Shown one piece after another: positions 4,185 through 8,533 of a DNA stretch of 64,000 bases (the first letter of the stretch is position 1; each line of letters opens with the position of its first letter). The translations under genes and the position numbers were made by a program. Origin of the DNA: Escherichia coli (GTDB lineage Bacteria > Pseudomonadota > Gammaproteobacteria > Enterobacterales > Enterobacteriaceae); NCBI RefSeq assembly GCF_001677475.2, contig NZ_CP015229.1. One strand, given 5' to 3'. The notes beneath the pieces were generated by a model that made no database searches, was not told the DNA's origin, and worked only from the letters and a program-made list of their open reading frames with translations.

Positions 4185-5264
4185 ATGCAAGCGGCAACTG
4201 TTGTGATTAACCGCCGCGCTCTGCGACACAACCTGCAACGTCTTCGTGAACTGGCTCCTGCCAGTAAAATGGTTGCGGTGGTGAAAGCGAACGCTTATGG
4301 TCACGGTCTTCTTGAGACCGCGCGAACGCTCCCCGATGCTGACGCCTTTGGCGTAGCCCGTCTCGAAGAAGCTCTGCGACTGCGTGCGGGGGGAATCACC
4401 AAACCTGTACTGTTACTCGAAGGCTTTTTTGATGCCAGAGATCTGCCGACGATTTCTGCGCAACATTTTCATACCGCTGTGCATAACGAAGAACAGCTTG
4501 CTGCGCTGGAAGAGGCTAGCCTGGACGAGCCGGTTACCGTCTGGATGAAACTCGATACGGGTATGCACCGTCTGGGCGTAAGGCCGGAACAGGCTGAGGC
4601 GTTTTATCATCGCCTGACACAGTGCAAAAACGTTCGTCAGCCGGTGAATATCGTCAGCCATTTTGCGCGCGCGGATGAACCAAAATGCGGCGCAACCGAG
4701 AAACAACTCGCTATCTTTAATACCTTTTGCGAAGGCAAACCTGGTCAACGTTCCATTGCCGCATCGGGTGGCATTTTACTCTGGCCACAGTCGCATTTTG
4801 ACTGGGTGCGCCCGGGCATTATTCTTTACGGTGTATCTCCGCTGGAAGATCGCTCCACCGGTGCCGATTTTGGCTGTCAGCCAGTGATGTCACTAACCTC
4901 CAGCCTGATTGCCGTGCGTGAGCATAAAGCCGGAGAACCTGTTGGTTATGGTGGAACCTGGGTAAGCGAACGTGATACCCGTCTTGGCGTAGTCGCGATG
5001 GGCTATGGCGATGGTTATCCGCGCGCCGCGCCGTCCGGTACGCCAGTGCTGGTGAACGGTCGCGAAGTGCCGATTGTCGGGCGCGTGGCGATGGATATGA
5101 TCTGCGTAGACTTAGGTCCACAGGCGCAGGATAAAGCCGGGGACCAGGTCATTTTGTGGGGTGAAGGTTTGCCCGTAGAACGTATCGCTGAAATGACAAA
5201 AGTGAGCGCTTACGAACTTATCACGCGCCTGACCTCAAGAGTCGCGATGAAATACGTGGATTAA
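4185..5264 (+). CDS. alr: alanine racemase, biosynthetic
   Basis: 359 aa; PLP-lysine motif [10 protein letters not shown]; located directly downstream of dnaB as in E. coli. Confidence 0.95.
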
Positions 5265-5516: not shown

Positions 5517-6710
5517 GTGTTTCAAAAAGTTGACGCCTACGCTGGCGACCCGATTCTTACGCTTATGGAGCGTTTTAAAGAAGACCCTCGCAGCGACAAA
5601 GTGAATTTAAGTATCGGTCTGTACTACAACGAAGACGGAATTATTCCACAACTGAAAGCCGTGGCGGAGGCGGAAGCGCGCCTGAATGCGCAGCCTCATG
5701 GCGCTTCGCTTTATTTACCGATGGAAGGGCTTAACAGCTATCGCCATGCCATTGCGCCGCTACTGTTTGGTGCGGACCATCCGGTACTGCAACAACAGCG
5801 CGTAGCAACCATTCAAACCCTTGGCGGCTCAGGGGCATTGAAAGTGGGCGCAGATTTCCTGAAACGCTACTTCCCGGAATCAGGCGTCTGGGTCAGCGAT
5901 CCTACCTGGGAAAACCACGTAGCAATATTCGCCGGGGCTGGATTCGAAGTAAGTACTTACCCCTGGTATGACGAAGCGACTAACGGCGTGCGCTTTAATG
6001 ACCTGTTGGCGACGCTGAAAACATTACCTGCCCGCAGTATTGTGTTGCTGCACCCATGTTGCCACAACCCAACGGGGGCCGATCTCACTAATGATCAGTG
6101 GGATGCGGTGATTGAAATTCTCAAAGCCCGCGAGCTTATCCCATTCCTTGATATTGCCTATCAAGGATTTGGTGCCGGTATGGAAGAGGATGCCTACGCC
6201 ATTCGCGCCATTGCCAGCGCTGGATTACCCGCTCTGGTGAGCAATTCGTTCTCGAAAATTTTCTCCCTTTACGGCGAGCGCGTCGGCGGACTTTCTGTTA
6301 TGTGTGAAGATGCCGAAGCCGCTGGCCGCGTACTGGGGCAATTGAAAGCAACAGTTCGCCGCAACTACTCCAGCCCGCCGAATTTTGGTGCGCAGGTGGT
6401 GGCTGCGGTGCTGAATGACGAGGCATTGAAAGCCAACTGGCTGGCGGAAGTAGAAGAGATGCGTACTCGCATTCTGGCGATGCGTCAGGAACTGGTGAAG
6501 GTATTGAGCACAGAGATACCAGAACGCAATTTCGATTATCTGCTTAATCAGCGCGGTATGTTCAGTTATACCGGTTTAAGTGCCGCTCAGGTTGACCGAC
6601 TACGTGAAGAATTTGGTGTCTATCTCATCGCCAGCGGTCGCATGTGTGTCGCCGGGTTAAATACGGCAAATGTACAACGTGTGGCAAAGGCGTTTGCTGC
6701 GGTGATGTAA
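5517..6710 (+). CDS. tyrB: aromatic amino acid aminotransferase, GTG start
   Basis: 397 aa from [13 protein letters not shown] with GGAGAA RBS 8 bp upstream; class I aminotransferase PLP-lysine region [14 protein letters not shown]. Confidence 0.9.
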
Positions 6711-6729
6711 TGCAGGAAAGCAGGCTGGA

Positions 6730-6756
6730 GTTACCCAGCCTGCAGTGAAATTAAAC
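6730..6756 (+). terminator. hairpin downstream of tyrB (probable terminator)
   Basis: GCAGGCTGG-AGTTAC-CCAGCCTGC stem-loop 20 bp after tyrB stop. Confidence 0.5.
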
Positions 6757-6931
6757 TGTCGTCGCTTTCACTCTTTCTTTGTAGATGATTTTTTTGATGC
6801 CATCGTTCTACGTGAGAGGTAATAAAACGTTGTTAGTTCTAACTTGTTAAGTTTATCCCAATGTTCTGGAGTGCTTTTCCCTGTTTTACCGTGTGGAGTA
6901 ATAATTTCTGCACATCTAACCATTATTAAAT

Positions 6932-7141
6932 TTAATAATAAGTATCGGGTTTGTTACGATAGAATTTTTCTATATCCTCAAGAATATGCTTTGCCTTATT
7001 GCCTGTGACTTTCTGAGATTCAATTATATCATCGTTAAATTCTAAAGTTAATGAGAACTCATTTTTTCCGCTTTGTGTAAGTTTAACATTATATTGCGTC
7101 GTAATTTTTAAATGAATATGTCCTGTAATGAGAATAATCAC
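6932..7141 (-). CDS. small hypothetical protein (possibly yjbS-like); may be the C-terminal fragment of a frameshifted gene
   Basis: 69-aa ORF in AT-rich DNA; overlaps out of frame with the upstream 122-aa ORF. Confidence 0.35.
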   Translation of the reverse strand: MIILITGHIHLKITTQYNVKLTQSGKNEFSLTLEFNDDIIESQKVTGNKAKHILEDIEKFYRNKPDTYY

Positions 7142-7457
7142 TTTTAGTTACCTCAGCAAAACAGCAAAGTGTGCAAATATACATACAATCTTTCTTACCC
7201 CTGATTTTGTTAACTAAATCAATAAATGCGTGAAAAAGTTTATTTGCAATAGAACTTGATGCTTCTTCTCCAGGTCTACAAAAATCTTTTGCAATTTTTA
7301 ACTGTGTTTCTATATATAAAAAGAGATCTTTGGCATAAGAGAAATCTTTATTATTTAGTGCATCTAGCTCAACAGGTAAAGATGTCGTTTTGTTGCTATT
7401 CACATATGATATATTCATATCATCATCTCCATCGGGAGTAATAAAATTAATCACCAT
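7089..7457 (-). pseudogene. AT-rich ORF that may be the N-terminal part of a frameshift-disrupted gene
   Basis: 122-aa ORF overlapping 6932..7141 by 53 nt in a different frame on the same strand; low GC compared with flanks. Confidence 0.3.
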
Positions 7458-7540
7458 TGTTGGGTAAGCGGCTGGTCAATCAGAAATCATCTTTATAAAC
7501 TTCGATTGTTTTTGTAATGCTGTATCATTAAGTTCATTAA

Positions 7541-8533
<993 letters not shown>

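Follow-up and report, generated by a model that had tools for sequence, protein, structure and literature searches.

The gap between tyrB and aphA in the 64,000-nt stretch of Escherichia coli DNA analyzed here (contig NZ_CP015229.1, the window) carries a genuine pseudogene, derived by a recent frameshift from an uncharacterised orphan gene. Two overlapping minus-strand open reading frames (ORFs) are found in this gap, and they are very probably the halves of a single gene that was made a pseudogene by the insertion of one base. The whole pseudogene occupies 6932..7418 on the minus strand, running from an ATG with a ribosome-binding site (MNISYVN...) to a TAA stop codon.

Gene order in the window is that usual for E. 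coli, with alr (4185..5264) followed by tyrB, aphA, yjbQ, yjbR and uvrA. tyrB ends at 6710 and aphA starts at 7820, and the two genes are 98-99% and 99-99.7% identical, respectively, to their counterparts in E. coli genomes. A GC profile gave values of 0.28-0.33 at ∼6800-7800 against 0.47-0.60 in the flanking genes, which is anomalously low for a genome of ∼51-52% GC. The ORF list places an upstream ORF of 122 aa, starting with ATG, at 7089..7457 (minus strand) and a downstream ORF of 69 aa, starting with GTG, at 6932..7141 (minus strand). The two overlap by 53 nt (7089..7141) in different frames, and the DNA that holds them has a GC content of about 29%. An earlier reading of this DNA made from the sequence alone (the sequence-only reading) had described the same pair of minus-strand ORFs, with a 53-nt overlap, in AT-rich DNA between tyrB and aphA, and its coordinates and composition agree exactly with the ORF list and the GC profile. 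A 317-aa ORF listed at 7580..8533 (plus strand) is an artefact in which aphA is extended upstream to a TTG; aphA is annotated as beginning with the ATG at 7820. Two more AT-rich troughs with a GC content of ∼0.36 were observed at 13001..14000 and 21001..22000, the second of which coincides with the yjcF/actP region, also an H-NS-bound promoter island in PMC3661553.

Complete E. coli genomes were fetched at evenly spaced ranks of 4,379 matching records, giving a sample of 18 of which 13 were intact and 5 broken at this locus. Each of the 13 has a single uninterrupted minus-strand ORF of either 174 codons (525 nt, beginning ATG-GTG-ACT) or 180 codons (543 nt), the longer form arising from an in-frame 18-nt tandem duplication (DISYAK/DFSYAK). 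Counted from the ATG with the ribosome-binding site, the intact product is 161 or 167 aa. Removal of one base from the window pseudogene restored a product of 161 aa from the ATG at 7418, or 174 aa from the ATG at 7457. The repaired 174-aa product aligned end-to-end and colinearly with the intact 161, 167, 174 and 180-aa alleles at 85-94% identity. The upstream ORF corresponds to residues 1-116 of the intact protein followed by six out-of-frame codons and a stop, and measures 122 aa when counted from the ATG at 7457 or 109 aa from the likelier start at 7418. The GTG of the downstream ORF is fortuitous, and its real coding part is limited to 6932..7104, the C-terminal 57 residues (ITTQYNV...PDTYY).

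The sequence-only reading had proposed that a frameshift broke a single ancestral gene of about 175-190 aa. The intact 174- and 180-codon ORFs, with which both pieces are colinear, bear this out, as does the match of the product obtained by single-base correction. Intact homologues exist, and both ORFs align to one orthologue. An intact version in relatives had also been anticipated; this holds within E. coli but not in other Enterobacteriaceae, where none was found and Salmonella has only a spacer of 186 nt.

The intact allele closest to the window is that of E. coli AF39, which is 96.3% identical across the intergenic region. The break site reads TTTAAAATTACG in AF39 and TTTAAAAATTACG in the window. 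Alignments place the lesion at 7105..7109 (minus strand) as a +1 insertion, with A5 on the coding strand (T5 on the plus strand) against A4 in AF39. A change of one nucleotide in the length of a homopolymer is the commonest type of assembly error, and the exact window haplotype was absent from the complete genomes in the collection, as would be expected if the extra A were a sequencing or assembly artefact and the gene were intact in the organism. That explanation is nevertheless very unlikely, because an independent metagenome assembly (contig L009, ENA ERZ926213) has the identical A5 together with the neighbouring SNPs, and two separate 122-aa proteins (P0010 and P0012) exist in the databases; a run of 5 nt is also short for errors of this kind. 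The lesion in the window looks like a real allele. Across 7050..7170 of the window, AF39 was the only member of the complete-genome collection with ≥95% identity, all others being ≤85% identical. The central part of the gene occurs as two haplotypes ∼15% apart, a KITTQYNV type and a DIGNQYKV type, a divergence far above the 1-2% of the flanking genes. The central haplotype of the window is rare and was present in 1 of 5426 complete genomes.

The lesions differ among the broken alleles. In K-12 and ET300 an A7 tract is reduced to A6, each allele having in addition a different second lesion. E1 and a metagenome contig (L024) have a different 1-nt loss in the same tract, O157 Sakai has a 10-nt deletion that removes it, and 32F4 has a CAA to TAA nonsense mutation. 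With the A4 to A5 change of the window, the independent knock-outs number at least five, three of them within one 13-nt stretch; IS1 and IS3 insertions also occur among the alleles. The tract is located at 7042..7054 (minus strand) and reads GCGG-A7-GAG in intact alleles. The three lesion types found there (A7 to A6, the 1-nt loss and the 10-nt deletion) mark it as a local mutational hot spot. In the window and AF39 the A-run is interrupted at this site, which reads A6T. A K-12-type 'YjbS' annotation was found in 13 of 39 evenly spaced rows, and an estimate from the 18 genomes together with the annotation patterns suggests that roughly half of the genomes carrying this AT-rich DNA hold an intact ORF.

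Clustering of lesions at A-runs, namely A4/A5 in the window and A7 in K-12, ET300 and E1, together with the U UUA AAA A-like string created by the insertion, could be read as a functional shift: the gene might use programmed ribosomal frameshifting or be switched on and off by phase variation at homopolymer tracts. We consider this extremely unlikely. Most strains encode the protein in a single frame, neither a shift site nor a two-frame layout is conserved, and the breaks differ in position and type. Slippery heptamers of this type act at −1 sites, whereas restoration of the frame here needs +1, which such a heptamer does not promote. Programmed frameshifting was rejected on these grounds. 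A phase-variable locus was likewise rejected, as the tracts are only 4-7 nt in length with no long simple-sequence tract among them, and the lesions include a 10-nt deletion and a nonsense codon; the second lesions in K-12 and ET300 are a signature of irreversible decay. Loss of a once continuous gene through one inserted base is retained as the reading of the window allele, and as biology such a frameshift pseudogene is an ordinary case.

A likely ribosome-binding site was located at 7419..7435 (minus strand), with GGAG 8 nt upstream of the MNIS ATG at 7418. Both GGAG and this ATG are conserved across all aligned alleles. On reading the sequence, no GGAG-like motif was seen upstream of the ATG at 7457. 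K-12 YjbS and most database proteins begin at MNIS. Because GGAG precedes the ATG at 7418 and most proteins start at MNIS, the real product is probably 161 or 167 aa in length and the truncated window product 109 aa. Whichever start is used, the window allele would yield at most a truncated product of 109-122 aa without the C-terminal beta domain. The same frame stays open for ∼44 codons further upstream (7476..7610, minus strand), past one TGA at 7476..7478. This TGA is conserved in all alleles, and the upstream open stretch contains no in-frame ATG; it could be due to chance or a trace of an older, longer N-terminus.

Homologues of the repaired protein were sought in several collections. No match was obtained in Pfam, NCBIfam or the anti-phage defence library PADLOC, and the best hit in the phage protein families of PHROGs had an E-value of 0.015 to a family of unknown function. 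All that a word-index search recovered were E. coli alleles, fragments and chimeric mis-assemblies. When 1.84 billion representatives were searched exhaustively with a HMMER profile, there were 28 matches, all fragments of the same gene. tblastn against phage genomes gave nothing, and against plasmids gave eight records, all with the flanking chromosomal locus and none representing a mobile copy. A scan of one genome per bacterial species located a single locus, on a probable contaminant contig. This 9.5-kb contig (L008, NZ_JAUFQN010000013.1) in the Flavobacterium paronense CECT 8460 assembly has a degraded copy of the E. coli locus and most likely derives from E. coli contamination of an error-rich long-read assembly. 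By these searches the gene appears to be an orphan, without a detectable homologue outside E. coli.

The protein is computed to be soluble, with a maximum 19-residue hydropathy of 0.73, a pI of 7.6 and a mass of 19 kDa, and its cysteines are not conserved among alleles. An AlphaFold2 model was of low confidence (pLDDT 57) and is laid out as a disordered segment (residues 1-36), two long helices forming a helical hairpin, a five-stranded beta-meander and a C-terminal helix. Comparison of this low-confidence model with known structures gave a match to the CdiI immunity protein of Klebsiella pneumoniae 342 (PDB 6cp9) that was not significant (E = 0.7). The match has no accompanying sequence similarity or neighbouring toxin gene and serves as a lead only. 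Assignment as a CdiI-type immunity protein was rejected, as there was no significant match of fold or sequence and no adjacent cognate toxin gene. Our best guess, a doubtful one, is a small non-enzymatic binding or immunity-like protein.

The absence of a homologue outside E. coli and of any domain match, the low-confidence structure model and the frequent breakage among strains would all fit a different account, in which the ORF is not a real gene and the long frame is a relic or an accident in non-coding, H-NS-binding promoter-island DNA. The K-12 literature indeed sees the region as a transcriptionally suppressed promoter island (PMC3661553). The length and behaviour of the frame argue against this account. 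In 2000 dinucleotide shuffles of the AT-rich DNA the longest stop-to-stop ORF averaged 68-70 codons, with a maximum of 168. The 128-codon open frame of the window was reached in 5 of the 2000, and the intact 186-codon open frame of a sister strain, in DNA of 30% GC, in none. The frame stays open in the 13 intact genomes of the sample, whose alleles differ from one another by as many as 41 sites, and the sole common length polymorphism, the 18-nt duplication, keeps it. The repeated unit (KDISYAKDFSYAKD, site ∼7330..7347) is duplicated in many alleles (L004, L006, L011-L021) and single in the window, K-12, AF39 and Sakai.

Substitution patterns were compared by the Nei-Gojobori method. In the true frame pN/pS was 0.21-0.51 for several divergent pairs (synonymous excess P = 0.002-0.05); the remaining two sense frames gave 0.6-4. 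For some allele pairs pN/pS in the true frame was near 1, which would also fit the non-coding account, and for this reason part of the allele family may already be evolving neutrally. These values show weak, uneven and frame-specific purifying selection on the intact alleles. Given the shuffles, the preserved frame, the synonymous excess specific to the true frame and the GGAG 8 nt ahead of a conserved ATG, it is quite unlikely that the ORF is not a gene, and we continue to treat it as one that has been broken in the window.

The gene lies in an AT-rich block (6712..7680) of ∼970 nt and GC ∼0.30 that fills the tyrB-aphA gap. This block is present in 4356-4378 of 5426 complete E. coli genomes (∼80%). 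Homology of the window to a block-less E. coli genome (L007), to a B2 strain (L028) and to Salmonella (L022) ends at the tyrB stop codon and resumes at ∼7681-7698, about 130-140 nt upstream of aphA. Salmonella has no block, just a tyrB-aphA spacer of 186 nt, and because of this the block is identified as an E. coli-specific insertion. As expected of an islet, it combines low GC with absence from Salmonella and from ∼20% of E. coli. In Table 1 of PMC3661553 the K-12 copy appears as promoter island 4266514_318, is bound by H-NS according to the Kahramanoglou and Oshima data sets and falls in the foreign-DNA class. The window block resembles the horizontally acquired and H-NS-silenced AT-rich islets of Shavkunov, Ozoline and co-workers in its GC of ∼30% and its absence from Salmonella, the H-NS data themselves being for the K-12 copy. 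Given the reported binding of H-NS to the block in K-12, transcription of the gene is probably silenced in laboratory culture.

Other features of the block were also examined. A GC-rich inverted repeat (GCAGGCTGG...CCAGCCTGC) is located at 6720..6743 (plus strand), just after the tyrB stop codon. It is specific to the block, other locus types having their own different hairpins at this position, and it was not called in a terminator scan because no T-run follows it. An Rfam scan of 6600-7900 found no known RNA, and consensus sites for promoters and terminators were no more frequent than in shuffled sequence. A 51-aa ORF (MVRCAEIITPHGKTGKSTPEHWDKL...) was observed at 6768..6923 (minus strand), 8 nt past the pseudogene stop codon. 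Among the sampled alleles, those of the window, AF39, GPEC1209 and ETEC4069 are the only ones in which it is uninterrupted; the remaining 14 have stops or frameshifts in it. Nothing usable was obtained for it from Pfam, NCBIfam, PADLOC or PHROGs. A role as a conserved partner gene was rejected, as it is broken in most strains, many of which keep the main gene intact; the ORF may represent a second gene in decay or be non-coding.

The tyrB-aphA gap is a hot spot that is filled in different ways between fixed junctions, by the AT-rich block, by the Kgu island or by ∼200 nt of unrelated sequence. The ∼200-nt filling was found in 19 complete E. coli genomes (e.g., L007). Most of the remaining complete genomes, of B2/UPEC type, have a 13.8-kb island that encodes a second set of 2-oxoglutarate dehydrogenase and succinyl-CoA synthetase, a DASS transporter, an Ldh-family oxidoreductase and a sigma-54 two-component system. 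Insertion of the KguS/KguR island between tyrB and aphA has been reported in UPEC CFT073 (PMC3694859). This island for alpha-ketoglutarate utilisation (c5032-c5041 in CFT073) uses the same gap and the same two junctions as the block and is an alternative filling, but is unrelated to the block in sequence, with no homology found between the two, and differs from it in being 13.8 kb in length with a GC of 0.50 and in carrying metabolic genes and a two-component system. The block was also considered as the scar left by deletion of the Kgu island, and this was rejected because the junctions share no homology by blastn. Within the Kgu island of E. coli 'clone D i2', the copy of lpdA (L028 12071..13488) is annotated as frameshifted. 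Strain MSB1_1D has an IS1-associated deletion of the block and the 5′ end of aphA. A pnuC and AAA-ATPase gene pair is situated between alr and tyrB in block-less and B2-type genomes (L007 963..2521; L028 5113..6671) and is absent from the window and K-12. The three states of the tyrB-aphA gap (block, Kgu island or short spacer) are useful as a lineage marker.

The K-12 gene yjbS (b4621; WP_001321562.1, 67 aa) is at the same locus and on the same strand as the window pseudogene, with the same tyrB and aphA flanks and the same start (MNISYVNSNKTTSLPVELDALNNKD...), and the K-12 and window DNA is ∼94.5% identical over the whole block. The sequence-only reading had suggested that the downstream piece might correspond to yjbS. 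Mapping does not agree with this: yjbS (L002 2002..2205) falls at approximately 7214..7418 of the window, in the N-terminal part of the upstream piece. In the K-12 allele a G is lost after nt 196, which gives the out-of-frame tail of the 67-aa product, and a second loss removes one A from the A7 tract further on. K-12 YjbS consists of the first ∼60 residues of the gene plus the out-of-frame tail, whereas the break in the window is further downstream and is an independent lesion. Because both the G after nt 196 and the A of the A7 tract are lost, K-12 yjbS is a remnant, with two frameshifts, of a longer gene. Membership of the window gene in the YjbS family is indicated by homology over the N-terminal ∼60 residues and by synteny; a 67-aa product as annotated was not found. 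The 67-aa form results from a frameshift of K-12's own, the ancestral product being 161-180 aa.

Intact E. coli alleles annotated as 'hypothetical protein' (P0002, P0006 and P0007) are colinear with the repaired window product but uninterrupted, and ECs_5773 of Sakai is a truncated 119-aa version of the intact 161/167-aa alleles. In many genomes (L001, L003, L004, L011-L021) PGAP either tags the intact 174- or 180-codon ORF as 'frameshifted' or 'incomplete' or annotates part of it as a separate 83-aa protein (WP_000275035.1). This mislabelling is probably due to the truncated K-12 YjbS serving as a template.

yjbS is among the genes of low transposon-insertion frequency in a TraDIS study of K-12 (PMC5821084), and a 2026 recoding study counts it among the essential genes (PMC13287592). 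Macrophage-adapted clones have been reported to gain IS1 insertions in yjbS (PMC4999529). Essentiality of yjbS is implausible, because the block is missing in about 20% of genomes and the gene is often broken. DNA bound by H-NS is under-represented in transposon libraries. A likelier source of the low insertion density in yjbS would be shielding of the AT-rich DNA against transposition by H-NS.

In the explanation proposed here, the gene rides on the ∼970-nt AT-rich block inserted between tyrB and aphA, and in the window lineage an A-run on the coding strand would have grown from A4 to A5, splitting the gene into two ORFs. The gene itself would be a dispensable, H-NS-silenced accessory gene in slow decay. 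A further-reaching proposal can be made, in which the intact alleles encode a functional, E. coli-restricted protein of 161-167 aa, arisen de novo or from an unsampled donor. Such a protein would be silenced by H-NS, costly or harmful under some conditions when expressed and repeatedly lost by slippage at short A-tracts, yet retained elsewhere under purifying selection as a cargo alternative to the Kgu island at an integration hot spot with three states. We regard this proposal as improbable. If it were true, K-12 yjbS would be a dead fragment and the real gene would never have been studied.

At the level of the gene family, the K-12 reference entry yjbS (67 aa) is an N-terminal fragment of a gene of 161-180 aa, a point of mild value for annotation, and PGAP has apparently been misled by this fragment into marking intact alleles as broken in many genomes. 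The pseudogene of the window is biologically routine, and the practical value of the finding is in the annotation and interpretation of yjbS.
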